Below, piece by piece: positions 2,211-50,701 of a DNA stretch of 52,868 bases. The notes under the pieces were generated by a model. That model saw only the letters and a list, made by a program, of their open reading frames with translations. It ran no database searches and was not told where the DNA came from. Source of the DNA: Seison nebaliae (lineage: Eukaryota); assembly GCA_023231475.1 (NCBI GenBank), contig JALJEE010001876.1:1-52868 (forward strand), read 5' to 3'. Every line of letters begins with the position of its first letter. The first letter of the stretch is position 1. A program made the translations under genes and the position numbers.

Positions 2211-4291
2211 ATGGATCTCATTAAAGTGGTTGAAGAATTATCTTTTCTCGGAGTGGAAGTCAACAAAGAATTTACAAATAATTGTTAATATTTCATTTAT
2301 CTGTTTAACCTCTTCATTGATCAGTAACTAAATATCAATATGTTTGGAAGGATCAAAATGAATTTTTAGATAATTACTCAAAATATATGGTAGACGATAA
2401 TTTGACGACACCAAATGATATTCTTCACCGAATGCTTGAAGTTCTATTATGATTGCCTAATTAAAATTATTAATTTTTAACAGAAACACCAAGTCAATCA
2501 GCGAACAAGCAGGTCGTCTTATAAAGGGCAAACAACGGAAAATCAAAGAAAGTTTTTATTTATTTTTGTCGAAGGTGTCGAATAAAAATGTAGATCTCAA
2601 ACAGTACATATTTTATCGAAATATTTGAAAGAGAATGTGACTCCAATCAAGAACAAATTGATAAAAACGGAAAAAATGAATGACGATCTAGGTGATCAAT
2701 GGAATGAAGAAATTTTAATGAATAAAATCAAAAAAGAGAAAGTGAAAGAAGAAGTAGAGGAGATAAATGAGAGAATAATAGAGGACGATGATGAAGATAT
2801 TTTAGAAGATATCTTTAAGGAATCTCAAGATATCAAAGATAATTGGAATTTAATTAATTATGATCACAAGAAATTGGAAGAAATATCATTCGATCAAAAT
2901 TTATTGTTTGCCGACTATCAAGCGATGGGAAAAATATTTGAGAAGAAATGGAAATATTTTAAAAATATTTTTGAGAACTGTGATAAGAAAATTAAAATTC
3001 TTTCCAGTGTCGACGATATCGTAAATGATCGATTAGATAATTATCTGGTTGGACAATTGTTAACTGTAGCGGATGGAACTGGAAATTTAGGACTGTGTCG
3101 AAATGATAATATTTTCCAAATTTATGATGAAACGAATGAAACTTTCGATAGCATCAAACTCAATTTCCATAATATTAATTTGAATGGACTTCTCTTACAT
3201 TCTGGTTTGTTCGTGATGATTAAAGGAGGTGAAATTAGTAGGAATAGATTTAATGTACAAAAGTTATTTCTACCTCCAATAAATGTAAGGAAGAAAGTAG
3301 AAGAATGTTCTTTGTCTTTTTGTGTGAGTTGTGGTCCGTTCATTGCAAATGAGAATGATGAGGAAAACAAATGGAAGTATCTGGAGGAAACGTTCAAACG
3401 AGTTCAATTATTTAATAAAAGTTTTTAATTTTTTAAATTTTATCGAAATTCATTTTTTTCGTAGATGTTTTGATTTTATTTGGACCGTTCTCTGATAAGT
3501 CGATTAATATGTCGTCAAGAGATATGAACGTAACAGAAGAATGTATGAAGAAAATCGAAGAATTCTCTATAAAGTTATTTCTCAAATTTCTGAAATTCTT
3601 AGAATTTTGTAAAGATATCTGATGAAGAAAGTTTTCATCATTCCATCACTTGACGATGAAGAGAAATTAAATGCTCTTCCAGCCGATCCATTTCCATACA
3701 AATCTTATTCTGTTAGGAAATTTTATTTTGTTTATGAAATTTATTTTGTTTTTAGAATATTGTTCAATTGCCGAATCCGTCTTATATTATTTTGAATGGG
3801 TTTAACATTTTATTGTTATCCAATTCTTATGTAAATGAAACAATGAATTGGCAACAAGATGAAGAAAGTATCTGTTCCAGAAATGCGAGGAAACCTGAAT
3901 TATTATTTCGCAATATCATCCATCAACGACAGTTAGTTATAATTATATTATATTATATATAATTTATTTATGGTTTAATATTAATAGTTGTTATCCATTT
4001 TATCCGATGCATCGAACATATGTCGATTATGATTCACCGACATTAGAAGTAGAATGCGTTCCTGATATGATAATTATGCCGATTAAATGGCATTATCTGT
4101 GTGAACGTATGGAGATTGTGGATGAATTAATTGGAGGCAGAGAAGAAAGTTGGGCGATGAATCCAGGACGATGTCATGTAATGAAGAATGGGGAATTACA
4201 AGGAAATGTGAGTTGGGTACAATTGAAGAGATGGAATAATCAGGAAAAGATGAAAGTAGAATCAAAAAACGAGAAAATCTTTCTCGAATAA
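2211..4291 (+). CDS. POLA2: DNA polymerase alpha subunit B (divergent), 8 exons
   Basis: Motifs VSCGPF, VLILFGPF, VFIIPSLDD, QLPNPSYIILNG, IIHQRHCYPFYP, PDMIIMP and MNPGR. Frame-restoring introns at 2284-2324, 2441-2483, 2552-2593, 3421-3464, 3574-3614, 3712-3755 and 3932-3987. Confidence 0.85.
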
Positions 4292-4487
4292 TAATTTATT
4301 GAATAATAAATGAAGTGATAATAAAAGAATGACGATAAAAATTTTGTTAAATGATGAAATAAATGAAAACAATAATAATCAATCAATAAATCGATAAAAT
4401 ATCTCTAAATAATTCAATCGAATTGAGAATATAAATGTTGCATGAAAATTATGATTGGTGACCACGATTGATTGTGATCAAATAATT

Positions 4488-7004
4488 TCATGTATCATTA
4501 AATGCATCATTAGTATTGTTGTTATTACTATTATTCGATTGACACTCGAGATGTAATTTACCGCTCAAAGTGGTAGTTGAAGAAGAATTATCATAGAAAT
4601 TTGTTGCAATAAAATTATTATTCTTTAACGATACATTATTCGTTGAATTTGGAGATAAAAATTGATTTTGATGATGTTGTTGATGTTGTTGTTGTTGATG
4701 TGGAGTGAAGGATTGTACTAATTGTTGATTATGATGATGTTGATTATTCGAATTATTACAACGGATATCATAAGAAAAATTATCATTATTCATCGTATCC
4801 TTTTCTAACTTGATCGATTTATTTTCACCATTATTATTATTATTCGCCGTCGTCTTACTAGACGACGATACAATTGACGATATTTTGTTGTTCGAAGTAA
4901 TAGGAGAATTATTAAGGATTGATGACATAATTGTATTCGTCAAATTAATTTTATTATTCATATCATTCTTTGCATTATTCGGAATATTACTGTTGTTGTT
5001 GTTGATATTTTGTTTGAAGTCGTTAGACATATTAAAATCATCGTCGTCTATCATCTCGTTGATGTTGTGAGAAGTGTTTTCAATAAGATTCTTATTCGTT
5101 GACGATGATGATGATGATACTAAAAGATCATTGTCATCCATTGATGAATTGAGATGATTATTATTATTATTATTAGTCTCCAATAATGATGTAGTTTGTC
5201 GTTTATTATTGAATTTTTTTGAATTACCTTTTCCTTTATCGTCATCGGTTCGAAAGTGGACGCCTTTCATATGTGTTCGTAAGTTGCCGGATGTGGAGAA
5301 GCATCGCGAACATTCATTGCACACATGCGGCTTCTCACCAGTATGTGTATGCATATGAACACGCAAATTACCAGAAGAACGGAACGCCTTATCACATTCG
5401 GTACAATGATATGGTTTTTCGCCGGTATGTGTATGAGTGTGCACACGCAAATTTCCAGAAGATCTAAAGGTTTTATTACAATACTGGCAAGAGTATGGAC
5501 GCTCACCAGTATGTTGTAACATATGCGTTCTCATATTGCCACTTGTGCGAAATGCTTTATTGCAGAAAATGCATTTGTGCGGTTTCTCGTTAGCATGTAT
5601 CAGCATATGTATTCGCAGATTCTGCAACGTAGTAAATCGTTTATTGCATGATGAACAGGAGTAACGTCTCTCTCCTGAATGGAAAAATTCATGAACTCTC
5701 AAATTGGAAATTGTCCGGAACTTCTTCGGACATTGAGTGCACTGATGTGGACGCTCATCGGTATGTACCGTTTGGTGCACTCTCAAATTCCCAAGAGTAG
5801 CGAATGCTCTCCCGCATATAGTGCAACAATGTGGTCTTTCGCCAGTGTGTGTCCTCTCGTGAATTCTCAAGTTTCCTTGAGTTCGAAAACCTTTTCCACA
5901 TGTCTTACATTGGAACGGTGTGGTGCCGGTATGGAGAAGAATATGATGACGAAGATTACCTCTCGTACTATACTGATTGTGACATGTGGGACATTCGGGT
6001 TTCTCACCTTTCTTCACCAATTTCATCATTTCATCTGGTGACATCGATAATTTAGATGAATCGTCGTCAAGACATTCCGATTTGATTTCACCAGATAACA
6101 AATCTTCACTTTTATTATTATTGTTATTTAACGGTCTATTATTCAAGTTCGTATCTTTATCATTATTATTCATATGATTTCTATTCTGATTTAATCTATG
6201 ACTCTTTTTATTATTTTCGTTCGACAACTTCCCATTCCCAACAACATTATTAATTGTTGTTGTTAATAAATTATTATTATTATTATTATTATCATTCGAA
6301 TACAACAACTGTTGTTGTTGTTGTGGATGAGGTGTATGATGAGAATTAATTTGTTGTTGTTGTTGTTGATGATGATTTTGATGATGATTTTGTTGATTAT
6401 TATTATTGTTATTGCTATTGTTGTTGTTAGTCGTTTGAAATGAATTATTATGTGGATTATTCAACGGCTGAGAATTAGATAATTGAGATTTGAGAAAGTT
6501 ATTTGGAATTAAACATTTCTGATTTAAATTTGATGTATTCGATTGCATTGCATTGGAAAGAATTGCATTTAACATCGTTCGATTATTCATCGATGACAAA
6601 TGTAAATTGTTATTAGTTGCTGTAGTACAATTATTATTCGTTTGATGTGATGTCATCAAATTATTTTTCGCATTAAACATCTGATTATTGTTGTTGTTGT
6701 TGTTAATGGTTGGTTTGGGTAATTCGATTTCACATAAAGGTGAAGTCAAATAAGAAATTTTCGAAGAAGAATTTTGTTGTTGTTGTTGTTGCTGTTGTGG
6801 TGTTTGTAGTTGAGATTGTTGTTGTGGCTGAGATTGTTGTTGATTTAATCGAGGCATCGTAGATGCCTGATTCAGATAGTTATTGAACATTTGATGCATT
6901 TGATTCTGATTGACGATATTCTCAAAATTTCCTCTCAATTGAACATCAAGACAATCAGTTAAATGTTTCTCATTCGATGTCAACACCGTGTACAATTCAT
7001 TCAT
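4488..7004 (-). CDS. C2H2 zinc-finger protein with nine tandem fingers and Asn/Gln/His low-complexity flanks
   Basis: 838-aa single-exon ORF with nine CxxC-x12-HxxxH(x) fingers and TGE(R/K)P-type linkers at about 5256-5993. Confidence 0.95.
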   Translation of the reverse strand: MNELYTVLTSNEKHLTDCLDVQLRGNFENIVNQNQMHQMFNNYLNQASTMPRLNQQQSQPQQQSQLQTPQQQQQQQQNSSSKISYLTSPLCEIELPKPTINNNNNNNQMFNAKNNLMTSHQTNNNCTTATNNNLHLSSMNNRTMLNAILSNAMQSNTSNLNQKCLIPNNFLKSQLSNSQPLNNPHNNSFQTTNNNNSNNNNNNQQNHHQNHHQQQQQQINSHHTPHPQQQQQLLYSNDNNNNNNNLLTTTINNVVGNGKLSNENNKKSHRLNQNRNHMNNNDKDTNLNNRPLNNNNNKSEDLLSGEIKSECLDDDSSKLSMSPDEMMKLVKKGEKPECPTCHNQYSTRGNLRHHILLHTGTTPFQCKTCGKGFRTQGNLRIHERTHTGERPHCCTICGRAFATLGNLRVHQTVHTDERPHQCTQCPKKFRTISNLRVHEFFHSGERRYSCSSCNKRFTTLQNLRIHMLIHANEKPHKCIFCNKAFRTSGNMRTHMLQHTGERPYSCQYCNKTFRSSGNLRVHTHTHTGEKPYHCTECDKAFRSSGNLRVHMHTHTGEKPHVCNECSRCFSTSGNLRTHMKGVHFRTDDDKGKGNSKKFNNKRQTTSLLETNNNNNNHLNSSMDDNDLLVSSSSSSTNKNLIENTSHNINEMIDDDDFNMSNDFKQNINNNNSNIPNNAKNDMNNKINLTNTIMSSILNNSPITSNNKISSIVSSSSKTTANNNNNGENKSIKLEKDTMNNDNFSYDIRCNNSNNQHHHNQQLVQSFTPHQQQQHQQHHQNQFLSPNSTNNVSLKNNNFIATNFYDNSSSTTTLSGKLHLECQSNNSNNNNTNDAFNDT

Positions 7005-8042: not shown

Positions 8043-10675
8043 ATGGAAGGACGAATCTTTGGTCGATGTATTCATTCGTTTGATAATCGGAATCGATTCG
8101 AAGTTGTAATTCCATATAATTCGCCATATCTTCTCGCCGTTCGTTCGATGACCTCTCGCATCTTCGACAAAGACCTGAAGAGATGGACTTTCTCCATTTC
8201 CGAATACGAGAGATTTTTACAAATTATTAATTCGTTGAAATCCCAAAACATCTTCATTGAACCGTTATCATCGAATCCTAATCAATCATCAGTTCCATCA
8301 ACTGCCGGAAATCGTAAGAGGACGTGTAATGATAAAATGAATATTTCTATAAAATTCTTAATGAGAGATAATGATCGAGTATCAATTCTTATGCCATTTA
8401 ATAGGGAGATGATTGATTTGATAAAAAGTCGATTGAAAACCAGAAAATATGACGCCGATAAACGACAATGGCACATTCATATTGATGAATATGAGCAATC
8501 AGTGGAACTGTTCGAGAAGGTCAATTCATCAAATCTCCAAATCGATTTGATGAAATTACCTGATGATCTTGTCAATTTTCAGAAAGATCTCATTTCAACT
8601 TCCCAAACTATCAACGATGATAATGATGATGATTTAATGAAAAGAATTCCAATTTTTGAGAAATTGATGCCATTCCAGAAGGAGACCGTACGGAAAGCGA
8701 TCAAATTACATGGGAAAATATTAATAGCGGATGATATGGGTTTAGGAAAGACGATACAATCATTGGCCATTTCTCTCTATTATCGAGAGAAGTGGCCACT
8801 CCTCATCATTTGTCCATCCAGTGTCCGTTATTCCTGGTTCGATGCCATCAAAGTTTGGTGTAGTTCGATTTTGACTGACATGTCAATAACGGACAAAACG
8901 TCGAATTCAGGAACATCGACCGTCACAAGTTATTCCAATCGAACTAGAATTTCCAGGAAATTGGATAGTGATTTAATCGATAATTGGAACGAAATTGTTC
9001 AAATTATTACGACGGGAAAAGATGTGAGAAATCGAATTGGAGTAGATAATTCGAGGATTAAAATTTATTTAATTTCTTATGATATGATGGTGAATGTGAA
9101 AGATGATCTCATTCGAATGATAGGAACATCTCCCAAAATAATAATTGCCGTTTATTTTTTTGTCCATTTGTCCGATTTTTTGAATATTTCCCATTGACTT
9201 CTCAAAAAAGGATGAATCTCATTATATGAAAAGTTTAAAATCTAATCGTACGAAAACCATCACATCATATCTGAAGGTTTTATTTTCATATTATACTGAA
9301 AAATAATCACCGAATTGACTTTTTGAGAAATGTGATCATATTATTTTGTTAAGTGGAACTCCAGCCTTATCTCGACCAGCAGAATTATTCCCACAAATTC
9401 ATGTCCTCTGTCCCAAACTATTCAGTTCATTCCATGATTTTGGTGTGCGTTATTGCGGTGCCGTTCAGGTTCCATCTCATCGTTTCATCTCATTTTTCAA
9501 TTTCCTTCCAATTAACAGACGAAATGGGGATGGAATTATTCGAAATCGAGCAATTTAGATGAACTACAAAATTTATTGAATCAACATTGTCTAATTCGGT
9601 TGGTATTCGATAAGTAAAATTCATTATCATCTTATTCCGTTCAGTCATACGAAAAGTGAAGTTCTTCAACAACTTCCGGAAAAGATAAGGGAACGTGTCA
9701 TAATGGATTCGTCATTAATCGATTTCTCTTCAGAGACCCTTCAAAGATCAAAAAATCAATTTGAAAAGAAGAAATCGGATAATGTTCTTTTCGTGTTCGA
9801 AATAATGTTGGAAATTAATTAATTTTTCAAAAAAGAAAAAATTGGAGACGGAAAAACGAACGGAATTCTTAGAATTCTATCGAGAAACTGCTGTAGCCAA
9901 AATCGATGCATTGAAGTTATAAAAAATAATCCTGAAATGTTTCTATTGTTTTTTCAGAAAATTCTTCAAAGAAACTTTGGAGACGGAAGGTGAGAATATC
10001 ATAATTTTCGCTCATCATCAACTGATACTAGATGAATTGGAAGAATTTATAAAAGATAAAGTTTTCTTGAGTATTGAAAAATAATGAAAATTTGGAATTT
10101 TTATAGAATTTCCCTTATATGAGAATTGATGGTAAGACGTCATCAAAGAAGAGATATGACAATGTGGAATGGTTTCAGAAACCGTCGGATAATATGAAGA
10201 TTGCTTTACTTTCAATTACAGCTGCTAATTCTGGAATTAGTTTGACATCGGCCACTGTTGTTTATTTCGCAGAAATGTTTTGGAATCCTGGTGTTCTTCT
10301 CCAAGCGGAAGATCGTGTTTATCGAATCGGTCAAAAGAATTCAGTTTTTATTCGATATCTGATTGCAGAGAAGACGGCAGATGAAAGTCTTTGGAGATTA
10401 TTGGAATATAAATTATATACATTAAAATCAGTTGGATTATCTAATGTCAGTTTCGCTAATACGGTTTAACATATTTCATTCGAATTATATTGAATAAATT
10501 GGATCATTTCAGAAATCGAAAGTTGAATTATCAGATCAGACGACAATTGATGAATTTTTTGAATTGAAAGAGAATTTGGAAAATGGTTAGAATTATCATT
10601 TTTTTTTCAAATTTGTATTATGCATTTCAATATACAGATGAGATACCTCGAGAAATTTTAAATGAATTGGAATGA
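8043..10675 (+). CDS. SMARCAL1: SMARCAL1/HARP SNF2-family annealing helicase, 10 exons
   Basis: Two HARP-like repeats (FDKDLKRWTF, YDADKRQWHI), then ADDMGLGKT, DESH, LLSGTP, RIDG and QAEDRVYRIGQ. Introns at 9150-9210, 9277-9327, 9469-9518, 9599-9644, 9784-9835, 9916-9957, 10061-10106, 10464-10512 and 10586-10637. Confidence 0.93.
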
Positions 10676-10712
10676 AAAGAAATGAAAATTGAATTGAACT
10701 AATAAAATTTTT

Positions 10713-11466
10713 ATGAATATTGTTTCGAATAAAGTTTATTGATCAAAATTGATTCTTCTAACACATGAATCATTAGAGAATTATTGAAATGAATATTCTG
10801 TTGAAAGATTATCTTAAACTCTTGTCTAGTATTACCGTATGTATTTATTTCATATCTGCCATCATCTTCTTGACTTATAGTCATGCCACTGCTATTACCG
10901 ACCACACGATTTGTAGTAATGTCACTCAATCTCATTTGAGATTATTACGACCACGTCGGAATTTATTCGAGGAATTACTCCAACAGTTACAAATTATGGC
11001 TAATACGAGTATGTTTCATTTTATCGATATCTCTCATGATGACATCTTATCACAATCATCATCATCGTCATCATCATATTATCCTATGAATGTGAGTATC
11101 ACAAAAAAATATGATTATTCCATCTGTCAAGAATGTCTCTCACATCTGGGCTGTATTTATTGTGATGGGGAAACATCGGACGATTTTGGCAGATGTACAA
11201 TGGCACCATTCTGGAAGAAATCGTCGACATGTTCGTCACCAAATCGAATTCGATATTTCCTCTGTTCGATGACCGTCGAACAATTATGGTATTATATGAC
11301 TGTCATGTACATATGTCTATTTGGAATTGTGCTAAGTATTTGGTTCGTTTTGAAGACTTATGGAAATGTTTGTAAATTTATCATGAAACGTTATCGATAT
11401 TTTCGATATCAAATAGAAACGAATCGACGAAATCGATTGGAAGAGATTGAATATGAAAAGATTTAA
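10713..11466 (+). CDS. PTTG1IP-like PSI-domain membrane protein (start at 10713 via intron 10734-10776, or at 10789)
   Basis: N-terminal hydrophobic segment, Cys-rich PSI pattern CQECLSHLGCIYC...C...W...C...C, a TM helix and a basic tail. Confidence 0.65.
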
Positions 11467-11554: not shown

Positions 11555-14500
11555 TTATTCTTTTTTTATTTGAATATTCGCTAACAATTTACTAAAGGGA
11601 TATTTTACACTATATTCATTGTATAACGGAATACATCGAATACCTGAAAGGAATTAAAGACGAATACCAACAAAAATTGAATGGAAAAAAACTAAAAAGA
11701 AAAACCTGGTCGTATCGCCACCAAGGGAATGATGCATTGTCCCAATAAACTTCCATTTGATTTAATGTTTTGATCTTCTTTGTCTATGACAGCGAATCGG
11801 CAGAAAACCAATTCCGCTTGCTCCACTTTACATCGCCAAGTTTTACTTTCGTTCGTTAACCAAACTGGATTTAATCCATTATATTCTGAATAATTTCATT
11901 GAGTTAAGAAATGTTAATTAATTCTAACCGATCGTTTCCGTACAATAACTTTGTAATTGATTCAGATGATGATACATCGAAACTTCCACACAAGCACTGA
12001 TGAAAGTGGAGGAACTTTTCTTATTTTTTTGTAGAAATCGCGCCGCAATAATTTGGATAATGAACGTTACGGTCGATCCGAAAGCGGAATTCCTTGTCGA
12101 ATATCTTTTATCCCACATAAATTTTGGTTTGAGAACATAACCACATCTAAATCATTTGAATTGATGATTGAATAATTGATGGAATTTAAATAACTTATTA
12201 TTTAAGTTGAATAAACTATGATTGAATTGAACAGGAAGATCAGGTGTTTGGAAATTTAATGCAACCATTTGACAACCAGCTGCCCAATATTTGAGAGGGA
12301 AATAATTGTCAGATCTGATACGTTTCGCATCGGGATAAATTCTCGATAAATGATTCATATTAAAATGAGCGAAATGTTCATTTTTGTTGATATGTTGCAG
12401 CGCCTTATTCTCGTCTAAAGACGTCATACAATATGCTGGATGATCCGAATCTAAATTAATATTAATAGTAAATTCATTAAAGATAAATCGAATAAAACAC
12501 AAAAAGAACCAAATGAAGATATTTTGATGGATTGACAATAATTTATTAATTCTGATAATTCTTTCGCTATAAATTTCTTATCGTCCGTTGGCAAGAGACG
12601 TTTGGTGAATGTTCGATTAAGTGTGATTGTGGTTGTGGGAATGGGAATGGAATTCATAATCTCTTTCAATGTCTGATAAAAGGTCGTAATGTCGTCCTTA
12701 CTCAATAAGGAGACATAGATGCAAGAGGAAGATAAGTGAATTTCAATAATATGTCCAATGATTTCTTGTTTGAGAATGGATGTAATTGCTAATGCAGCCT
12801 TCTCCTTTGAAATTGTACAACTGGTGGCTATAAAATCTATTAACATTTCATCGTGAGTGGAAGCATTGTATTTGAGAGGAGAAACTAAGAAAATAAATTT
12901 GAATAATTTCATTTGTATTAGATATGGAAAAAAAACCGTCAACGATTTCGTTTAATGAAATGTTTTGTGTATTATTTATTTCCGAAATTTTGTCATTCAA
13001 TTTCGATGTTAATTGTTCATTCTGAAAATATTTTGATAAATGAAAATGGATAATGATAATAAATAAAGAAAACTTCGGCATAAATATAATTACTCGTTGA
13101 GGATGATAATGTTGTTTGAGATAAGGAAGAGATTGATGATGAAATAGATGAGGAGACAGTGATATAACTGTTTCGTCGGTTATTGGAGAAAATGCTGTCC
13201 AACTGATGTTGTCCTTCGATCAATGAAGTGAAATGATCGTTACTGAGACTTCGACGTGCCACTTCGTCATTATACGATTCTTTATAACTAAATTGACAAT
13301 TCGATCGATACATATCGAAAAGAAATTGTCGAATTTCTTCATTTCGATTCAAATTAGTTCGAAGACATTTCGAAATGGTTTTCTTAAACGTCTCAATCAA
13401 CAGTTCAATTAGTCGAATAATTGAGAGTTTTATGGTGAAAACTTCAGTGGAGAGGTTTGGATTTGATAAACGAGAATCGATGGTGGAGAAAGCGGAATCA
13501 TTATTCAAATAATTTTCATGAAAAGTCGTATTAATTTCATAATAATAAATCGGATTCTCTATATAATATTCAATGAGATGATTCAGTGTTGGCATTTCAA
13601 TCGTTTCACCGTTATTAGTTATATGAACGAAATTTAATCCTTCTCTTATTAATCGAATATGTTTCACTTGATCACGACACCAAAATGATATGGTATAATT
13701 ATTGAGTGGATATCGCTCATAATACAAAGTATTCGATGCTGAATCCATTAAATGATTCGCCATACCGGAATTGGTTGGAGATGATTTGGAGGATAAACGT
13801 ACGATAAAAGCACCATCAATTTCAATCGAACTCAAAAATAATTCAGTCGTCTCCATCGTCCATTGTGGTTGATACCAATAATTCACTAATAAATCATCAA
13901 AATTCGATGGGAATTGATTGAGAAAAAGTGGAAAATAGATATCTGGTTTCGGTACAATATCTTTCAACGAACCAACCGAATATAATTGTTGATTAATCTG
14001 ATTGACAAAATTCAATGGATGCATTCGATAATGTTGTATGAGAGAATTGAGCGATTGGAATTTCTTGTTCGGATTGATATAGTAGAACATTTCGTTATCC
14101 ATCTCGATTGGTTTGATCAATAATTTTTCGATTTTATTCTCGTAAAATAGAATGATCGCATAATCATTATTAGATGATGGTCGAAGAAGAAATACTCCGT
14201 TATCATGAGTTGAATCCTCATTGAATTGATGAGGTGTTCGATGACGTTCATCTTGACGGTTCTGTATGAAATTCGCTATTCTTCGATATGCTTCCTTCCG
14301 ATCCGTTTTATGATACCAAGGTTCATAATCGATCTTCTCAACAATCTTCTCCATATTCTTCATTTTTGAATCTTTCGTTTCGAAAACTTCTGTCGCATCT
14401 TTGATCAACGGTGTATTATTATCTTGTTCGAGATTATTTATTTTTAATAATCGACTGTTAATTTCGAAAATTTTCATTTCCCACTTTTTCGTCTGCTTAT

Positions 14501-18035: not shown

Positions 18036-19109
18036 ATGGCGAATCTAAATAATCACATAGTGGTTGTCACTGGTTCGACCGGTGGCATCGGTAATGGTTC
18101 TAATTAATTTTAATTATCGATTATTTTTAATTAATATTTTTTTTTTATTTTTGCAGCATTGGTTGCATCGTCAATAAAACGAGGAGCAAATGTTGTTGCG
18201 ATTGGTCGAAGTGATAATAAATTAGAAGAACTTCTATCAAAATTTAATACGGAAAAATGTTTTTTCCATTTTAATGTTTCTAGACTATTTAAATGTAAAT
18301 TTTGTAGTAACGACATTAAAAATCGATTTAATGAATGAAAATTATGAGGCAATTTCTGAAAAACTCAAAAATAGGTTAAATGAAATGTTATTGGTGAATG
18401 ATGAATTGAAAGTATCGATATTAATCAATAATGCTGGTGTCAGTTCCAGATCATCAGTTCAATCCACCAATATGGATGTTTATGAGAAATTAATGAAAAT
18501 TAATTTATTCTCTGGTATTTCTCTCACGAAAACGATCATACCATTTTTCAAGGAGAAATCAAATTCATGTTATCTCATCAATATCAGTTCATTACAGGGA
18601 TATCTTCCATTACCTTATCGATCTGGATGTTTCAATTATTACCTTCATTCGATTTTCATAGTTTTATTCAATTAATTAGATTCCATGACAAAATTTGCTA
18701 TGCAATCATTTGGTGATTGTTTACGATCGGAATTATATGGTGATGATAAAACATCACATATTCATGTTGTCACTGTATCACCTAGTTATGTGCAAACCAA
18801 AATATCAGTCAATGCTCTTAAAGGAAATGGTGATACTTTTCAAAGTTTTACTTCCGCTCGTAATTCTTGTCAATATTTATTTTCCATTGTCAAGGAGAAG
18901 AAAACCATATTTATGATACTGGAGATACACCAGAATATATAGCGGAATGTACATTCAATGCAATCAGTGGGAAAGGAAAACCAAAATCAGATGTATTATT
19001 CGGAGGTATTGTCCACCGGTTAGCTGTATGGTTGAAATTCATCTCTCCTTGGTTCTACACTATAATTATGAGTCGTCGTGCTAGAAACCAGAAAACGGTG
19101 TACAGTTAA
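18036..19109 (+). CDS. Short-chain dehydrogenase/reductase, DHRS7/7B-like (5' end uncertain)
   Basis: VVTGSTGGIG, LINNAG, NISS and catalytic YSMTK formed across an intron. Introns at 18097-18156, 18259-18307, 18629-18679 and 18845-18894. Confidence 0.88.
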
Positions 19110-19513: not shown

Positions 19514-21018
19514 TTACAGATCTGTTTGAAATGCATGACGATGATAAATCAGCGTCCTTTTAGCAAACGATGATGATGTAACATCTTCCTCTTCATTCAT
19601 ATTCATCAAGGAAGACGAGTCGTTTCCATAGGACTTGAGATGAACTCCAGTTTTCGCCATAACTTTTGCCATGCTTTTCGTTACGGTTGGACCTCGAGTC
19701 TCCCTCAATGAATGATTAATTTGTTGTTGACTTCCATTAACGTTCTGTTCTTTCATGTTCGATAATAATTCCAAATTATCATAATTGTTTCGATATTTAT
19801 TTTGCTTAATTTTCAACTTGATCGAATCTAACCATTCGTCACAAACACGTTTCCATCTCTAAAAATAATAAATAAGAATAATAATAACGAAATTCAGAAA
19901 AAAATATAGAAATCAAACTTCGCTTTCTCGTACTTGGATAAGTTTAGTTAGATAATTGGTCGTTCGTAAAGATTCTTTCCTCATTTCGATTTGTTTATCT
20001 AATTTTAAGATATCTTTTCTCATCTTATACGGAAGATGACGATTAATTCGTGTTTCCATATTCTGAATGATATAATAGGAGAATAATAAATAGATTAAAT
20101 AATAAGAGTAATGAATGAACTTCCATGGCAACTATACGTTTAGTAACGATATGCATAGGTAATGTTTCCAAGGGAGAATCATAAACTTTATCGGTGTTCT
20201 TCAACGAATGTAAGAGTTGAGGAAGAACTGATTGAGAAAAATGATATTTTATCACATCAATCTTCCTCCTCTCATTCATTCGTTTATCAACGTCTACACG
20301 ATTAATGTCTGACGGATAAATTTCATTTGTGGTTGATCTGAAAAAAAGAAATTGAAATTCATTATTATGAGATTACAATGAAATAATCCAACGCTTTCAA
20401 CTGCACAATATCATTCGTTAATTGCTTACATTTAACGATACGTTCTTCTAAGCATCGATGTTCGTCTTGTATTCGGTGATGGTTATCTTTCCATAAACCG
20501 TCATCCGAACTATATTCACTCAATCGTTGATATTCCTTCTCAAGAAATGAGAATTCTCCTGAAACACACAAAATGAATTGTTGATGGTAAAATGGAGAAA
20601 ATATTTAACCTTTCAATTCCACCAACATTTTGGATACTCGTGCCAAGTCTAGTGCGAGACATTCGATGTTGACTAAAGGAACTTTTCCTTTGGAAATCTT
20701 CTGAAATCGAGTCAATTTGTTCGTGTTACTTTCGGTCATTCCGAAGTAATCGCCACAAATATCGTTAACAATCTCTTTGAGAAATTGGAGATTCTCATCG
20801 ATGATCGATGAATCAACATAATACATTTGCATTTTCTGTGCAAATATGTCAGCTGTTCGTTGCATAATCATTCGACTGCAATCGATTTGAGATGATGATA
20901 ATTTGGGAGTTAAAGTCGATTTCGACAAATGAGTAGACACTGATAAATCTTTCGGTAATGCCGAATGGAAAATATTATCATAATTGTCATTATTTCGATT
21001 TCCAATATGATTCCTCAA

Positions 21019-21099
<81 letters not shown>

Positions 21100-30814: not shown

Positions 30815-31147
30815 TCGAGTGATTTTTACCGAAATTGTTTGATGGGAAGAAAATGGAACCTGAACAAAACGATTTGTGTGTTTCCTTTTGGATTTTGTTG
30901 GTACATTTGACGAATCATCACTTGTCACTGTGGAGGATGAGAAGGAGGACGAAGTTGTGGTTGAAGACGCGGAGAAATTGTTACCCATCGATGTGGAATC
31001 ACTTTTCTGTTGTTCTCTTTTAAGACATGCAATTATGGGACTTTTTATTGTTGATGTATTACGTAGGTTTGTTGCCGCAATTGAATATGGTCGATAACAT
31101 TGGTGTTGCTCTTCTTTATGTAATTTTTTCGAGTCGCCTTCTTCTGT
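30815..31147 (-). CDS. Probable upstream coding exon of the AIP3-domain gene
   Basis: 333-nt stop-free exon (TEEGDSKK...ISVKITR) bounded by a CTAG acceptor and a GTTAGA donor. Phase 0 at both ends, compatible with the acceptor at 24984. Confidence 0.55.
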
Positions 31148-33692: not shown

Positions 33693-34268
33693 AACATTAA
33701 TATTTGATATCTCAGGAACTTGATCAACAGATATTGACCGCTTGGTGGATTGATGCACAAGAGTATCGTCCTCTTTCTCGTCGTTAGTTGATATTAATGA
33801 AACAGATTTCCCATTATTACTGTTAGAGTGACTTCTGTCATTCTTTCGGAAGAAGTTGATGTCGTTAAGTTTTATAAGTTTCTTGTTGAACGAGGGAGAT
33901 ATTTTCAACGTCGTTCTCGATAAATCATAAACTTTTCGAGATAATTGATCAGATTTATGTCGTATTAAATTCCCACTTAAACTTTGCGTCATCGTGTTAA
34001 CGAAAGTGTTCGAGAGTTTTCTTGATTTATCATAAACTTTATGAGAATGTTCCCAATTGGTCTGATGTTGGAAATGATTTCGGTACGCTTGGCACAACTC
34101 GAGTGAAACAGCTGAGTTTTTCTCATTTGTCTCGCCAGGTCTCCCAACTCCATCTGAATAGTTACTCTGGTAACGGCATGGAATCTCTCTAATATTATCA
34201 TTATATTCCACTGCACTATTAAACTTTACATGATGACGAATATCGTTATCGTAATTTCGATTTACCAT
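33693..34268 (-). CDS. Probable alternative first coding exon of the AIP3-domain gene
   Basis: 197-aa ATG ORF with a phase-0 GTTAGT donor a few codons before its stop. Confidence 0.5.
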
Positions 34269-36924
34269 ATTCCTTCATTCACGAAATGTTGCGAGACAAC
34301 AATTTTTCTTAGTCATTTGTGGAAAAAAAATTCATTTTTTGTCTGTTGAAATAACAAATTAGGATAAGTTGTATATAATTCCAATAAATAAATGAAAATA
34401 TTCTTTACTATCAAAAAAAAAATATTGATCAACTGAAACTCGATGATAAACGAACGAGAAATTTTTTGCCGAGGTTTTACACAAAAATAAATGAACGGAA
34501 AATTGATGGAATGATACCAGTCCATAACTTAAATTAACTGCATAAAAAACAAAGTAATCCAAGAGCGGAGAATAAAAAAAGATTTATTTATGATACAAAT
34601 TCGATTAGAATGAATTTTCAATTTCTTCAATTTGACACGTTGTAATATGACGTATAATTTTCCTTATATAAACTTATGTAATAAATCATAAGTAAATAAA
34701 TGAAAGAAACATAAAAAAAAATTCAGGAACTTCTAGAAATGTGCATTAAATTTCTCCAACCATCAATAGAAGTAAGTAGAATATTGAAAGGAGGAATACC
34801 TGACGTAAGGACATGTCGATTTGCATAAATAGTCTTTTCTGAAAAACGAAAACAAGTTGATCGTCGAAGAAACGATGAGAAGTTGTTACATAAAACTCTT
34901 CTTTATTTCAAATATCGGATGGAATGAAATCTTTCTTTCTTTTCTTTCATTAAATTCGCATGCAGTTTTCTACTTGCACTACAACATGAAAAAGGCTCAT
35001 TTGTATCAAAAGTATTCAGGAAGGAACTATATCAAATAAATTTTCTATTCATCTTTCTCTCACTCTTTATCCCACAATCACAATATTCCTCAATATATCG
35101 ATGTAATAATATTTATATCAAATTTCATTTTCTTCTTCCATTTCATAATACATAAACATTATCATAGACATACAAATAAGTCAGACCGATACTTAATACG
35201 AAATTTCCACTAATTATATAATTGAGTAAATTTTCCGTTAACTCTAAATTTCGAATCCTCACAAAAGTTCTTATTTCCCACCATTCGAATTCCACTCAAA
35301 TTCGTAGTAGTTTCCAATTAGGAAACTTTCTTTTTTAGTTTAATTGTAGTTATTCTAATTTCATGTAATTATTACTTGAATAGCAAATGAATAAGAAGTA
35401 AAGTATAATTGTATCGATGCGAGAGCATCATCTGACAATAAGATGAATTTCAAAATGATTTGTTTGAGAATAATATTTATGATATTTACTATGGTTAATC
35501 GAAAAGGAGAAAGGAATCATACCAGCTGATTATTTCTCCCAAAATAAAGTACTTATATCAATAAAGGAATTCTTCTGATTCTTATGATAATTATCTTTTA
35601 CTTTCCTGTCAATATCAGACGATCATTTCCATAAAAATAATCAACGCACTTATCTATTGTCAAATCCACTTATGGTAGAAATCGCCGACGTACAATCATT
35701 CAAACCATTTAAAAGGTACTTCATATATCGTTGTGATTAGTATTTTAAGAAGAAGAAGAAACCGCAACAAAAACGAAAATGTGAGAATATTAAAAACGGA
35801 ATTTCCATGTCCAATATGTATTCTGAAAAACATAAAATGATATTGTTAAGATGTTATACGACTATCTCCCCGATTAATTTATCGGGTCTAAATGTGCGTA
35901 AAATTATTTGCGAATGCTTCTTATTGAGGTTTAACATCGTCGTAACACCTCATCCCAAATTAACGATAAATTCCCTTATAAATAAATAAGGAAATGAATA
36001 AGATGTAACATCTCAGTTAGTTACATCATTAAGCGCAACAAATCGTCTTATGACAAGAAAGCGTCTGTCGTCAATCCTGTCGATAAAGACATTAAAGAAA
36101 ATAAGAATAAAAAAAATCGATATGGAAGGAAGCATCATGTTTCCAAATGAATAATTATTATAAAATGTATAGATAAATGGAATTTAATGTTCTGCATATA
36201 TTCAGATCGCTCAACTTATTGTAACAATCCGCTACACTATGAAAGAAGGAGAAGTACCTCAACTTTCAACTACACCTAATAAGTACTTCTTTCTTTGAGT
36301 ATACGATGAAATATTTATTCATTTAATCGTACGAATAAACTGGATAATAATCAATAATTATAATGCTCTCAGTCACTCATTCAATTTTCTGATCATGAAA
36401 CGAATTATCTTGGGAAATTCAATAAATCGTCCACTGCCTAATTATTCTTCTTCGAATCGAAATGACACCTAATACTAAACTCTCTGGAATAAAGGTTGAT
36501 GATATTCACTCTAATTCAATTGCATTTATTCTGTTCAATTATATATGAGTGAAAATAACTATAATTTAACGTTCATTAATCCAATTGGAAATGTGTAAAA
36601 GGAAAACTAAAACGAATAATTTCGAAATTTGTAAGACCTAAACTTTAGGTTTAGCTCCACCTACACATTTTCTTTTTATGCATAACTTGTAATTTTCTCA
36701 ATCATCATCGTCCTCTTAATTTCCTCTTGTTTAATGTCGACTCTCTCGCAATATGAAAGACAGTTAATATATTATACTCCGATTATCAGTCCAAGGAAAA
36801 CTATTTTTTAGACTTGTTTCATTTTGAACTGTTATGGACAATAACATCCAATTTCTTTCATTTTTTTTCGGGTAACAATAATTCATTGTTTATATCTTTC
36901 CAAAATCGCATATCAATGACTAAC

Positions 36925-37737
36925 CGTAAGTGTCGAATTGGAAGATGCGATGGACGAAATTTCATGCTCTCTGTCCTTCAAACAATTGGGAATATTGTAC
37001 AATTCTCCTGAGTTTCCGCTGTAGAATGTCATCGGAACATAATTCATTCTCTTTGATTCTTCGTATGAATTTGAAAGTAAATCGTTGTCGATTTGTTCCA
37101 CATTCTCCGTTTCGTCAGAACTATTCGTTCGAATTGTTCCATTATCATCATTATCGTCGTCGTTGATGTCTTTCAAATTCCGTCCGTTAATCACGTTGTC
37201 CAAATCAGACGCGATCATTCCACTGCTGACTAATGACGAAAATTTTTCATTCGGTATTTCGCTATCCATCGTCTTCGCTACTGTTTCTGTCATGTTCCTC
37301 CTCTCAATCTTACTTCCCATTGTGGTGGTAGTGACGGCGGTGGCACTGATGTCTCGTACGAAGAAATTATTACTTAATGTGTTAATGTCAGGTGTCGTCG
37401 CTAATAATAGAGGAACTACTGTACCCATTTTGACAATCGTCTCACCATCTCGTCCACACATGTTCTTAATGGCATCAATATTCATCAATGGTGTCGTATC
37501 CTTTTTCGTCGGTTTTCCGTTATACGGCGACGTTGACCAAATGTAGGAGAAAGATTTGCGTTTTTTCACTTTCTTGTCTTCTGAGAATTTCGACGAATTG
37601 TCGTCCGACTTGTCATTTGCGAAATTAACAGTCGATAGCAGTCTCGATGGTGCATACTCTTCGCATTTTTTATCTGATATAACTGGGTCGAAAATGACAT
37701 GACGTTGAGGTTTTGTTATTGGTTTGGCTGATGTCAT
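36925..37737 (-). CDS. Probable alternative first coding exon of the AIP3-domain gene
   Basis: 274-aa ATG ORF (disordered, S/T/D-rich) ending ACG|GTTAGT at phase 0. Confidence 0.5.
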
Positions 37738-40700
37738 TCTTCCATATTATACCTCGAATTCACTCTTTATCAATCTATCTATTACGAAATGAAAAATTAA
37801 TTAAACATAAGAATTAATAATGCCTCATAAAAAATCGCTTTCTTCTCTCACAGAGAAATAATTTGACAAAATTATTTATTAAATCGAATTCGATTAAACT
37901 CTTGTTTGTCAATTCCATGAATTGAGCGGGAACATCTGAAGAAAACCATTTATCTGACTATAATATTAGTATAACATGATGGAGATAAACATGAAATTAA
38001 CCATAATAATTGTGAAAATTCTTTATACCATTCGAATGGTCGGAAAATTCATCGATAATTGATATAAAGAAAATTCCTTAATATTTTACGTATTCTTACC
38101 TCTCAAGAATGTATTTCATTCGGAGGGGGAATAGAAACAAAAGAACTTGTAACCACCACTAAAGTAAATACATATCATGACGGTGGTGTGAGAATAAATA
38201 AATAAATAACTGAACCGATTATTGTACATGAGAGAGAGACTCAATGAGAATATCTATTAGAATGATTTGTAGAACTCCTTCTCCTGAACGGATGAGAATA
38301 TCTCGAAATAACTTAATTAAATAAGTACGACAGGTGCATAGTAGCATATGATCTATTATAATAGATCGAATTACTTCGCTGTAGATCGTCAGAATATTGA
38401 CGATGATGATGATGATAAGATGAGATAGTATATTGATGATGGTGGGAAAGAATGCGAGAAATCTCTTCGCAAATATATCACTAATACTCTAATTAGTTTT
38501 CCTTTCACGGATAAACCATAAGAAATTATCGATTTTAAAAATACAATTCCAATTACATAATTTATTTTCCTTTACACGAACGTATCGAATTAAATATGAA
38601 TGGATCTGAATGAGCTTGAAAGATAGTAGGAAATTGGATTAAAAATATATTACCTCAACAATGTCATTGATTATTGAAGTTAAGGATCTAATGAAAAAAG
38701 TTTGTCGTTTGATTAACGCATATTGAGGAAATGGGATCAATCTTGCATTAGTTTCCTCTTGACGTAATATGAGATAGGAAGAAAATTTTATGTTTCACTT
38801 ACATGTCGGAGGTTGTTAAGTTTTGTTTTTAGAGAATTCAATTATTCCCAGAAAAATTGTTTATGAAGTCTCGCAAGTATTGAATATTATCTTGAAAGAT
38901 TGATTAATTCATTCGATCATTTCACGAACTAACCGGAAAATGTAGACAATAGGAAAATGAACGGGAAAGTCAAGAAGGGGAAAAACTTTCATTCTTCTAA
39001 CCACAAGACGATGAAATTAAATTAGAAACATCTCGAAACATGGGATAATAAATGATTAATTCGCCGCTAGTCCCTAATGAGTATTTTCAAATGGAAATGT
39101 CATACGCGCGAACTAACATAATGCATCAATATTCCGCTTGGAATTTCCGACTGTATCAACGGAATGATGAATGAACGAATTCAATTAAATCGGAATGGTT
39201 GCAGATTCATAAAAATATGTACCATAACTACAGTCCTGGATACATGGAAATCCCACATTTACTCTACCAAAATCTACATTAATACTGTAACATTTTTATA
39301 TGAGAAATAAATAATATTACAAATTGACATAAAAGTCAAATTTTCATTGAATTCTGATTGATATTTTTGATATATCACTCTATCCGCTTCACATATGATG
39401 ACGTACTTACATGTCTCTTAATAACCACAACATGTCTTCTGATCACACAACAAAAAAAGAGTATTATTTGCAGAATTATGTACGTACATTGTATTATCTT
39501 ATGTATTAGTAAATATCCTTTAAAACAAAATAAATTTGCTTCTTTTCCCTAACCAGCCAAAATCTCACACTAACGGTCTGTCTCTCCAATGTACACCAGT
39601 TCATCTTCCAGTTCAACTATCCCGAGTCCAGTTAGTAACTGGCAGTTCGTTAGGTTAGAGGAATTGTAAAAAAAAATTTCAGTAAAGGTGTGTATCATTG
39701 TGTCGAATTATGTTGACATATGTTATGTTGATGAAAAAACACTTAAAAGAAGCAGTTTTATTAATAAGTCTCCCAATTTTCTTATAGTTGTAACCACAAC
39801 TTATAAGGTTTCTCCAATAACTCACGCTAATGGGGGGGCATACATATTCAAACTCTGAATTTCAGAGAAATACAAGAGACAACTCTACTAGGTACATATT
39901 GATGGAGTCTGAGTGTAGGAATGTTAAATAACTTTCTGAATGAAATGATTATGATGAATTGGATCATTATTCACGAATCTTTCTTCCGCCGTTTGAGTTT
40001 TCTTCACTTCTCACGCAAATAATTGTTTATCTAACATTAATAATATGATTTCTCAGAAAAAAATACTCATATTCTCACACGACTCAGAAAATGAAAGATT
40101 ACTTGAATAGTTTCTTTATAAACATTCTCCGTTGTACTATCCAAGAAAATGGGTGAGGTCTAACCGCGAGAATTGTAAAATGAATGAAAAGAGAGAATTG
40201 TTCCCATTAGAAGACTTGTAAATTGGAATATTTATAGATAATAGGAGCAGCTGTTATTGCCATTGCATATTTCGATTAAATAAGTAATTGAGATTACCAA
40301 GTGGTATCATACTGTGAGTTGCTAAATTGTACTAATAATAAGGAAATTTTAATTCCACTTTATTCGTTCGAAGAACTTTCCTTATCTTCCGAAAATTCTA
40401 TTTCTCTTCGAAAACAAGTCGAGTATCAATGGAAATTATATTGCCACTCTTAGAAGAAGAATAGAATTGAAGGAAGAAATGAACTAATGATAATTATGTC
40501 ATTGAGTCCACACATATAGATCTTCCTCTGTTTGTTATGTAATCAAATTAGGAGCATAGAAGAAACTCTCATATACATTTTTCCTCTTATTATGAATAGG
40601 CAATGGAACGTTTAAGAGTGTCATATGAAGATTTTTAATTTACATCCTTCTTCTTCTTCGTTCCAACTCGCATCAATATAAATAAAAATTCCAATAATGA

Positions 40701-42158: not shown

Positions 42159-44167
42159 TTAGAGAAAGTGAAAAAATAAAAAAATAAAATAAATGATCAT
42201 TTGATGGTATAATTCTTGTAAGGTCATTTGATTTATTGTACAACTCCGGTTCGTTCCATAAAAGTTTACTCGCGGTACTATTTTTTAAAAATATAATTCA
42301 ATTAAATAGATATTTAATAGAAACTTGATTTAGTTCTTGAATTTTCATGATCTTCGTGTAAATTCGGCAGTTTCGGCCAATGGTCCGTCCTCTTCGAGTA
42401 CTGTTGTGATGGTTGCACTAAAGTGACCGATTAAAAGAATGTTGCAATTTCTTGATTAGAAATTTAAAAAAAAGAACTTGTTAGTTGAGCTATAGATGAA
42501 TGTTTCCCATAAATATTCATCGCCACACATTCATATAATCCCATATCTTCGAAAGAAACGTTCTGTTTGAAATTATCATAAAATTATCATTTGACTAAAA
42601 AATGTGCGAACTTGAATAATTAATCGTAAGCGATAGATATGACCATTAATGTGCCTTCGGTTTTCTAATTCATTTAATTGGACAATACTCTTCTTCTTCA
42701 AATCGGTACATTCATCAGATGATGATATTCCCAAATTCCAAATTCCTGGAATTATATGACAATCGTCTCTTAATCGCCTCCAATATAATCGATCTTTTGG
42801 GTTTGTTCTTATGATACAATTTATTTCTGTTGTTTCTTTCAGAGTACCTATAATTAACGATCTCGAAACATGTTGATTTATGGCAGGAAATAATTCGAAT
42901 TTCTTCTTATTCAAATTCTTATTCTTATTCAAAAGTTTATTTAGTTTCACCAAATCGACTTCTTTCAATAAATTCTGTTTCGATAAATTGATCATTGTTG
43001 TTGGACTGCCTTCGATGTTCAACCTGATGATTTTTGAAGAAGCTGGTTCCACTCCATTATTCGCTACACATTCCACACGATTAGGAGCCGCTCCAATAAG
43101 TACATCAGTAAATGTAAAAATTGACATTTGTTCGTCTTCTAAAAGAAATTCAAAAGTTGAATTTGAAAAATTAAAATAAATTTTTTTTAAATCAAAACCG
43201 ATCGTTCTCATTAATTTGTTATTTTGATAGAAGAACCAGAAAATTTTCGGTCTTGGATTACCCAACGCCGAACAGCGAATTGTTACATCATCTCCTTCTC
43301 TCACCGTCACGTGGCCAACGGTGGTATTAGCCTCGAAACGTGGTGGCTCTAAATAATGAGATTCATGAAAGAATTTAATTGAAAATGGAATTAAAGAATT
43401 ATTAATGAACCTAATACTTCCAATTTGACCGATTGTAAAGTGGATTTTATTGGTTTTAATAAATTCTTCAAATTTTCAAAGTCATTTGATCGTTTTGATA
43501 CTTCGTCGACTGTCGATAAAGAAAATCGACGTTTATGATGTTTGATATTGGTATTATATTTCATTTCCATAACAACGATCGGCTCAGTCCAAAGAATATC
43601 ACAAGCGTATTCATCCGCATCTTTCGGTTCAATGTCTTGAATAAGCAGATCCCACACCTGGAAATAATGTTCCACGAATCTCTCAGCGATAACCTTCGAC
43701 TGAAAAGTGGGAGATTCGTTATCGATCTGATTAGTTCGGTAAGTCAATTTCTTGAAAACAGTCAAATTCAATGGACGTCGTACGGGCATGAGCCTCAACC
43801 GTTTATCTGTATTCAAACTTTTATCATTGAACGATAAAATATCACCAGAACTTATTTTCATCCAAACTATCTATTTCCATTTAAATATTTAAAAGTTCAT
43901 AAATTTAAATTATTATGAAATGAACTTTCGAAATATCCGGAATATTATCAGCAGCAAAATGATCGATATTTGGTAAGAAGCAAGGTAATTGAACTGCATG
44001 CCCATTAATTCCACGAACAACAACTAAATCATTTAATTCTAGATAATTCAATAAAATAATTACTACAATCAATATTGGAAATAAAGTAAGAAACCTTCGG
44101 TATGAATCCAATTGAGAATTTGAAATAAAAAAATTAATTTCGTCCTAGCCACATGACGAAAGAACAT
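42159..44167 (-). CDS. Three-Ig-domain cell-surface protein, Lachesin/DIP/IgLON-like, probably GPI-anchored, 8 exons
   Basis: Signal-peptide-like MFFRHVARTKLIFLFQILNWIHT; Ig motifs WDLLIQDIEPKDADEYAC, VREGDDVTIRCSALGNPRPKIFW and DMGLYECVAMN; hydrophobic C-terminus MIIYFIFLFFHFL*. Introns at 44039-44094, 43871-43925, 43349-43410, 43139-43198, 42563-42611, 42418-42477 and 42278-42324. Confidence 0.8.
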
Positions 44168-49426: not shown

Positions 49427-49553
49427 ATTTTTTTTTTATTGTTTCAAATAAATTTTTAACAAAATTATAATTCTCTAAACGTCGCAAAAAATCAGATGGA
49501 TATGATAAATAAAATCAGATATATCGCATGAATAGATCAACAATAATTGAAGA

Positions 49554-50701
49554 TCAATAATTGATTGATTTTAAAACATTTTCAATAATTCGCCATTTAG
49601 AAGGAATAACTAGTTGTTCATATGAATGTGGCATTGTCGGTACATCCCACGAACATACTCGACTAATCGGAGATTCGAGATTGAGGAAACATTCTTTCTG
49701 AAAATGAATTTTTAAAATTAAAATTATCATAAAGAAAAAATGAAATGAACTTGTACCGTCGCTGCAATTTCTGAACCAAAACCTGATGTTTCTGGTGCTT
49801 CATGAGAAATTAATAATCGTCCTGTTTTACTTACTGATTCACAAATTGTTTCATAATCCCATGGTAATATTGTTTGTAGATCGATGACTTCACATGAGAC
49901 GTTATATTTCTCCTCGAGAATTTGAGCTGCTTCAATTACCACATGCATTTGTGTTCCCCATGACAATAAAGTGATATCATTCCCTTCTTGAACGATATCT
50001 GCTTTTGATAATGGCAATTTATACATTTTTATTGGAACATCTTCAACGGCAACTCGATATAAAATTTTTGGTTCAAAGAAAATACATGGATTATCATCAT
50101 CTATACATGATGCTAATAATCCTTTGGCACGAATTGCATTCCGTGGCATTACCACTTTCATTCCTGGCATATGTGAGAAAAAAGCTTCGGGACTTTGTGA
50201 ATGATATTGCGCTCCATGACCCACAGCACTACATGGTGTACGAATAGTTAATGGTCCACATGTCCAATTACCATAAGAACGATATCGATAACGACTCGCT
50301 TCATTCGTTATCTGATCGAATGCTGGAAATATATAATCTGCAAATTGTATCTCTGCTATTGTTCGTGCACCCATTACAGCTGAACCAATAGCAAATCCGA
50401 TAATTCCTTGTTCACTTAACGGAGTATTAAATACACGTTCTTTACCATATTTCTCCGCCAAACCAACTGTACATCGGAACACCCCACCAAAATTAACATC
50501 TTCACCAAATAATATCGTACTCTCATCTTCACCTAATTTATGATCGAGAACTTCTGTAATAACGGAAAGGAAGTTTTTTTGTTTAGTTTCTCCCAAAGAA
50601 GACGAAGGCGTTTCCGGTTGAAATTTGAAATGTAGTGAGCGCCCATTAAATTTGTGGAAATTTTTTGAGAATTGAAATAATTTTTTAAAAGAATTCATCA
50701 T
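49554..50701 (-). CDS. BCKDHB: Branched-chain 2-oxoacid dehydrogenase E1 beta subunit, 2 exons
   Basis: [39 protein letters not shown] and [10 protein letters not shown]. Intron 49698-49750; last exon [14 protein letters not shown]. Confidence 0.96.

Follow-up and report, generated by a model that had tools for sequence, protein, structure and literature searches.

Uniform GTT donors in short introns of a Seison nebaliae contig and a possible change of U1 small nuclear RNA

We describe here the 5' splice sites (donors) of a single contig of Seison nebaliae, a small marine relative of rotifers (JALJEE010001876.1; 52,868 nucleotides (nt) of a ~44 Mb genome, GC content 28-34%; hereafter the window), on which all 38 short introns that could be rebuilt, in genes on both strands, begin with GTT and end with AG within 41-62 nt. 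Judged from the sequence, this GTT feature is real and strong on this contig, and GTT donors are very likely used lineage-wide at a high, perhaps not absolute, fraction. An earlier reading of the bare letters (the original prediction) had reported 38 such introns, 37 of them obligate and one in frame; all were recovered at its gene counts, with a stop or frameshift removed by 37 of the 38 and only 43198-43139 in frame. Its further proposal that donor recognition has been re-specified is supported by the invariant +3T (38/38), by exons that do not avoid GTRAG, and by in-frame GTA sites adjoining real donors that are passed over in comparisons with hidden Markov models (HMMs). As to the cause, we favour, with a probability of roughly 0.55, a change of the U1 small nuclear RNA (snRNA) that places A instead of U opposite +3, combined with a relaxed U6 reading of positions +4 to +6, within the major spliceosome.

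The introns and their donor sequences

The introns belong to seven genes: seven lie in a gene that the original prediction labelled POLA2, nine in SMARCAL1, six in PLC-gamma, four in a short-chain dehydrogenase (SDR) gene, four in a long minus-strand gene labelled AIP3, seven in an immunoglobulin (Ig)-domain gene and one in BCKDHB. Four NCBI Seison proteins were mapped letter for letter onto the window (P0121, SMARCAL1; P0210, PLC-gamma; P0001, BCKDHB; P0231, 589 amino acids (aa)), and the introns they imply (9 + 6 + 1 + 7 = 23) are GTT..AG in 23/23; the BCKDHB of the window is 100% identical to SNEBB_010766. A further 15 introns were rebuilt here without NCBI proteins (SDR 4, long minus-strand gene 4, Ig-domain gene 7). 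The sole database match of the 589-aa protein P0231 is itself, and a Pfam scan of the exon pieces tried gave neither an AIP3 nor a polymerase-B match; the labels POLA2 and AIP3 are unconfirmed. The introns are listed below, with a raised dot at the exon-intron border of each donor.

2284..2324, plus, intron 1 of the 589-aa gene, att·GTTAATA; P0231 map; only GT solution
2441..2483, plus, intron of the 589-aa gene, gaa·GTTCTAT; P0231 map
2552..2593, plus, intron of the 589-aa gene, aaa·GTTTTTA; P0231 map
3421..3464, plus, intron of the 589-aa gene, aaa·GTTTTTA; P0231 map
3574..3614, plus, intron of the 589-aa gene, aaa·GTTATTT; P0231 map
3712..3755, plus, intron of the 589-aa gene, tct·GTTAGGA; P0231 map
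3932..3987, plus, intron of the 589-aa gene, aca·GTTAGTT; P0231 map
9150..9210, plus, SMARCAL1 intron 1, gcc·GTTTATT; P0121 map; HMM
9277..9327, plus, SMARCAL1 intron, aag·GTTTTAT; P0121 map; HMM
9469..9518, plus, SMARCAL1 intron, cag·GTTCCAT; P0121 map; HMM; second-lineage alignment begins 9516
9599..9644, plus, SMARCAL1 intron, tcg·GTTGGTA; P0121 map; HMM; second lineage matches GT only
9784..9835, plus, SMARCAL1 intron, aat·GTTCTTT; P0121 map; HMM; acceptor may be 12 nt downstream
9916..9957, plus, SMARCAL1 intron, gaa·GTTATAA; P0121 map; HMM; GTT kept in second lineage
10061..10106, plus, SMARCAL1 intron, aaa·GTTTTCT; P0121 map; HMM
10464..10512, plus, SMARCAL1 intron, acg·GTTTAAC; P0121 map; HMM
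10586..10637, plus, SMARCAL1 intron 9, atg·GTTAGAA; P0121 map; HMM
11644..11705, minus, PLC-gamma intron 6, cag·GTTTTTC; P0210 map; HMM
11886..11928, minus, PLC-gamma intron, tcg·GTTAGAA; P0210 map; HMM; GTTAG kept in second lineage
12147..12194, minus, PLC-gamma intron, taa·GTTATTT; P0210 map; HMM; GTTA kept in second lineage
12451..12509, minus, PLC-gamma intron, ttg·GTTCTTT; P0210 map; HMM; GTT kept in second lineage
12885..12936, minus, PLC-gamma intron, acg·GTTTTTT; P0210 map
13022..13073, minus, PLC-gamma intron 1, gaa·GTTTTCT; P0210 map
18097..18156, plus, SDR intron 1, atg·GTTCTAA; own reconstruction; GTA and GTG options also frame-keeping
18259..18307, plus, SDR intron, aat·GTTTTTT; only GT solution
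18629..18679, plus, SDR intron, gat·GTTTCAA; restores catalytic YxxxK; adh_short matches on both sides
18845..18894, plus, SDR intron 4, aaa·GTTTTAC; own reconstruction; other donors also frame-keeping
19859..19918, minus, intron of the long gene, gaa·GTTTGAT; reconstruction; GTA 15 nt upstream also frame-keeping
20063..20120, minus, intron of the long gene, gaa·GTTCATT; reconstruction
20338..20392, minus, intron of the long gene, agc·GTTGGAT; reconstruction
20559..20609, minus, intron of the long gene, aag·GTTAAAT; reconstruction
42278..42324, minus, Ig-domain gene intron 7, caa·GTTTCTA; reconstruction
42418..42477, minus, Ig-domain gene intron, caa·GTTCTTT; reconstruction
42563..42611, minus, Ig-domain gene intron, caa·GTTCGCA; reconstruction
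43139..43198, minus, Ig-domain gene intron, sole in-frame one, tcg·GTTTTGA; reconstruction; Viterbi parser
43349..43410, minus, Ig-domain gene intron, tag·GTTCATT; reconstruction
43871..43925, minus, Ig-domain gene intron, aaa·GTTCATT; reconstruction
44039..44094, minus, Ig-domain gene intron 1, aag·GTTTCTT; reconstruction
49698..49750, minus, BCKDHB intron, caa·GTTCATT; P0001 map; HMM; in-frame GTA 6 nt upstream 12.5 bits lower

Of the 4660 GT dinucleotides in the window, 1878 (40%) continue as GTT, and the intron background is T 50%, A 32%, C 11% and G 7% (A+T 82%). The chance of 38/38 GTT is p ~1e-15 at the window background and 4e-12 if T is set to 50%, as inside introns; for introns of this kind, the GTT fraction has a 95% lower bound of 92%. 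Positions +4 to +6 had been described as nearly free, which largely holds: the composition at +4 (A9 C11 G2 T16; n = 38) shows no preference for A and keeps U below its 50% background, +6T is at background level (20/38), and +6G occurs twice (2/38). What departs from it is an excess of +4C (11/38 vs 11% background) and of +5G (8/38 vs 7%), each with p = 0.002 at n = 36 and marginal after multiple testing, with +5G tied to a purine at +4 (6/11 vs 2/25 otherwise, p = 0.005). Set beside canonical GURAGU, the donors have a purine at +3 in 0/38, +4A in 9/38 and +5G in 8/38, and none reads GTTTGT (0/38). The GURAG class is gone from these introns, leaving a small GUURG remnant.

On the exon side of the donor (n = 38), A stands at -2 in 25 cases and a purine at -1 in 31 (A 17, G 14), so that AA· ends 16/38 of the preceding exons and AG· 6/38; -2A, the -1 purine and exon +1A all lie above the coding background (p <4e-4). 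This AR bias of the exon side is weak; taken together, the donor code is likely to be roughly A(A/G)·GUU. The first exon base after the acceptor AG is A in 26/38 (all 38 acceptors; coding background 37%), and the insertion sites look like AR·A; the site usually cited is AG·G. In other respects the introns carry U2-type traits, with GT..AG termini in 38/38, C or T at acceptor position -3 in 33/38 and T at -5 in 25/36. They are U-rich downstream of the donor, and YTRAY-like branch-point matches are scattered along their A+T-rich length. U12-type introns, whose donor motif is RTATCCT, were rejected on the basis of A at +3 in 0/38.

Checks on the junctions and possible exceptions

Uniformity of this kind could be an artefact of T-rich introns and of GTT sites being picked both in the earlier reading and by self-trained annotation, or else a local quirk of the contig. 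In favour of this, the junctions were derived from DNA sequence, a GTA or GTG option would also keep the frame at 14/38 of them, and only 52.9 kb of ~44 Mb are covered. However, when every GT..AG excision of 30-90 nt that restores the frame was listed for each of the 38 junctions, 24/38 had no GTA/GTG option and 21/38 had GTT options only, while the 36 off-site options followed the background (GTT 11, GTC 9, GTA 9, GTG 7). Besides, seven unrelated genes on both strands agree, and homologue HMMs and second-lineage alignment ends (below) pin the sites independently. We consider an artefact highly improbable.

A crude Viterbi parser, whose donor knowledge was GT/GC only and which was blind to +3, placed GTT at 38/52 predicted introns and at 28/35 short ones in strong genes; five of its seven non-GTT calls there lie within open exons of the gene models and the other two at junctions also solvable with GTT. 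With HMMs built from non-Seison homologues (56 SMARCAL1, 6 PLC-gamma and 58 BCKDHB sequences), the GTT site ranked first among GT donors at 16/16 junctions. GTA/GTG rivals occurred at seven of these, trailing by 10-34 bits at five and by as little as 1.3 and 2.7 bits at the other two; one GC rival tied with the GTT site (+0.2 bits), and the score of the donor at 9784 improved when it was paired with a later acceptor.

Two S. nebaliae lineages differing in GC have been described (PMC8351084; here and below, statements citing the text of papers follow excerpts of them). At 80% likeness, a second copy was seen at depth 2-5 in sequencing runs X2-X5, which come from one sample; its exons are ~81-88% identical, with most changes towards G/C (32 of 50 alignment pieces viewed). 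Its pieces align over exons and end within 2-5 nt of predicted donors, which provides independent support for the junction positions. Four of the five testable donors run through +3T (9916, 11928, 12194 and 12509), while at donor 9599 three second-lineage records end after GT, and this donor is probably not GTT there. Since +3T is kept at 4/5 only, the claim that every intron starts with GTT, which stands for the 38 of this window, is probably too strong beyond this lineage. Contigs from runs X1, X2 and X3 span the window without splice joints and behave as DNA, with no bearing on expression, and run X6 gave no contigs matching the window.

Some further sites fall outside the count. Acceptor 24985 (minus), ahead of an open reading frame (ORF) of 1,470 codons, could pair with GTA at 25035, for an intron of 51 nt, or with GTT at 25061, for one of 77 nt; it may mark an exception or belong to a 5' untranslated region intron. 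Three isolated open frames (36916-37746, 33678-34274 and 30803-31147, all minus) resemble exons set between long introns; their plausible donors, GTTAGT at 36924 and GTTCCA at 30859, again begin with GTT, neither being pinned by homology.

How a GTT code could be set

In the standard register, intron position +3 faces U1 position 6, and animals mostly use GTR donors. Published consensus statements agree with the latter (bioRxiv 10.1101/2022.06.08.495308; PMC11732430). Under the U1 change that we favour, a 5' end such as ACUAAC would fix +3U and no longer bind GURAG, loss of METTL16 would leave U6 unmethylated and remove the +4A/GURAG class, the uridines of U5 loop 1 would tolerate either purine at -1 along with A at -2, and short length (41-62 nt) together with 82% A+T would supply the remaining information.

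Exons of the window ignore canonical donors, in that GTRAG is not avoided. Nine coding sequences (6,441 codons) hold 24 exonic GTRAG against 14.2 +/- 3.4 expected under per-gene synonymous shuffling, a result with which pooled shuffling agrees, whereas 26 control coding sequences hold 27 vs 41.6 +/- 5.5 expected. The controls are short loci with an ORF of at least 300 aa, taken from a metagenome scan with rotifer BCKDHB (in one, L067, the longest ORF is not BCKDHB); the 80 loci of that scan gave essentially uninterrupted matches and so no outgroup donor spectrum. With the Ig gene included there are 25 exonic GTRAG sites; in eight cases, YAG follows downstream at a distance of 41-62 nt. Binding of a canonical U1 end to these 25 sites would reach -6.2 kcal/mol vs -2.3 at true donors, while for a U1 end with A6 the values are -2.75 and -2.9 and the gap is gone. 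Avoidance of GTT in exons is weak (RGTT 114 vs 131 expected) and similar in the controls. A U1 end with G opposite +4 gave the best duplex fit; this candidate is post-hoc and was not counted.

An Rfam scan of the window yielded no match at gathering score, and none of its five weak matches up to E=5 is a spliceosomal snRNA. We take ZMAT5 to be a minor-spliceosome protein. It is BUSCO Missing in Seison, as it is in both acanthocephalans, and so are the U6 phosphodiesterase and LSm1 (PMC12256650 supplement). METTL16, which the original prediction did not name, is likewise scored Missing for Seison, while each of the other 24 syndermatan genomes has it, one of them as Fragmented (same supplement); its loss is tied to lost +4A/GURAG use in mutants and yeasts (PMC11347140, PMC11732430, PMC10581693) and in several species moves donor use away from GURAG towards U5-type sites (PMC11347140, PMC11732430). 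U5-40K (SNRNP40) and SPF45 are also Missing, the core U4/U6.U5 proteins are complete, and SNRNP27 is Complete (PMC12256650 supplement), which led us to reject its loss.

Several points weigh against a changed U1, beyond the second-lineage donor at 9599. The antisense motif is depleted in the controls as well (33 vs 44.6), which makes them a weak control; the duplex comparison is partly circular because the GTRAG sites were chosen as such; and the A6 U1 pairs weakly, with a mean of 6.1 of 11 Watson-Crick pairs (n = 36). With ~36% of metazoan BUSCOs missing in the Seison assembly (PMC8351084), a 'Missing' METTL16 may simply mean a diverged one. Moreover, METTL16-less yeasts prefer +4U, whereas in Seison +4U is found in 16/38, below 50%, with SNRNP27 kept. 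Finally, U1 is unchanged in most atypical-donor lineages (yeasts, Giardia, Trichomonas, Micromonas, Thecamonas), although these altered +4 only (bioRxiv 10.1101/2022.06.08.495308).

The code could instead be real but set at the U6/U5 step, through a changed U6 base facing +3 or a G-U wobble, with U1 canonical, marginal or lost. GUU can pair with a typical U6 ACAGA (bioRxiv 10.1101/2022.06.08.495308), Cyanidioschyzon does without U1 and has an altered U6 ACAGA box (PMC11732430, PMC10581693), the near-equal A and G at -1 (17 vs 14) fits U5 uridines over U1 C9, and METTL16 and SNRNP40 are BUSCO-missing. Such a code should, however, fix +5G and +6U, where we see +5G in 8/38 and +6T at background, and the core U4/U6.U5 proteins are BUSCO-complete; we hold it to be unlikely. 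Rather unlikely, too, is a protein (a diverged U1C, LUC7, a TIA1-like factor or a PRP8 surface) that imposes +3U on canonical snRNAs: this would accord with the canonical U1 kept in most atypical-donor lineages (bioRxiv 10.1101/2022.06.08.495308, PMC10581693), with the strongly diverged U1C of Entamoeba (bioRxiv 10.1101/2022.06.08.495308) and with introns that are U-rich past the donor, yet a canonical U1 would prefer the 25 GTRAG sites in exons to the true donors, and these sites are not avoided.

Donors might also be found without any U1 base-pairing, U1 being lost or serving only as a scaffold, with U5 and unmethylated U6 together reading a minimal AR·GUU on introns of 41-62 nt, which we regard as distinctly unlikely. 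A canonical U1 reading the donors in a +1 shifted register would predict +3U (38/38) and the -1 purine (31/38), but equally +4R, +5A and +6G, which are seen in 11, 8 and 2 of 38, at or below background; its mean pairing is 4.6 vs 5.1 in the normal register (n = 36). With +6G in only 2/38, we rejected this register as very unlikely.

Pairing between U1 and the 5' splice site is regarded as among the most fixed parts of the spliceosome. A rewritten U1 in Seison would, if true, provide the first animal example of a re-coded 5' splice site in the literature searched. A +3 switch from purine to U in an animal whose genes have several introns each would demonstrate that re-coding can reach many donors at once. 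Two questions become testable with existing genomes, namely the identity of the snRNA that determines the +3 base and the effect of losing METTL16 in an animal. Either way, GTT donors matter for gene prediction in the Seison genome.

Other window contents and comparison with known systems

Besides the genes discussed, the window holds an intronless gene of 838 aa (4491-7004, minus) with Q/N-rich tracts and zinc-finger repeats, presumably of the C2H2 type, and, near the contig end, an intronless single gene (51076-51387, plus) that starts MAGRGK and that we take to be histone H4-like. A weak match to the integrase core rve (924-1184, minus; E=0.0015, below the cut-off) is probably a decayed retroelement. 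The spliced Ig-domain protein (42190-44167, minus; 539 aa) is hydrophobic at its start and again in its C-terminal tail, and these two ends may resemble those of glycosylphosphatidylinositol-anchored adhesion proteins.

A +1 shifted U1 register was reportedly described by Roca and Krainer in 2009; a GTT start is common to both systems, but G at +6 is needed there and found in 2/38 here. The U5-type AG//GU donors of animals and plants, one of two classes and 32% of C. elegans donors (PMC11732430, PMC11347140), are similar in that intronic +4 to +6 are free and the exon side pairs with U5. They differ in needing AG, whereas Seison has AG· in 6/38 and AA· in 16/38, with the GURAG class absent and +3U fixed. 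In Saccharomycotina, loss of METTL16 and SNRNP27K accompanies a switch from +4A to +4U under a canonical U1 (PMC10581693, PMC11732430). Seison shares the lost +4A preference and a METTL16 that is BUSCO Missing; it keeps SNRNP27, however, shows no gain of +4U and has changed at +3.

Our literature search, which covered few subscription papers, returned no account of splice sites in Seison, nor any animal whose donor consensus has +3U. The excerpted passages on introns and splicing of PMC8351084, PMC10125929, PMC12256650 and PMC13161344 are silent on donors, and introns are not covered in the supplements of PMC8351084 and PMC10125929. The compensatory U1/donor cases that we found in print are amoebozoans, that is, Entamoeba, Mastigamoeba and a mixed Physarum; Entamoeba, the only published +3U lineage among those found, combines GUUUGU donors (88-89% of its introns, in an intron-poor genome) with a U1 changed to ACAAAC, a typical U6 motif and a diverged U1C (bioRxiv 10.1101/2022.06.08.495308). 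The two resemble each other in a near-universal +3U in GT-AG introns (38/38 in Seison) and as AT-rich, gene-reduced lineages. In contrast to the strict motif of 6-7 nt and the few introns of Entamoeba, Seison has 38 introns in seven genes, GTTTGT in 0/38 and only +3 fixed, and Seison is an animal for which the U1 change is a prediction. On this analysis, the Seison system appears to work like that of Entamoeba without being a member of it by motif.

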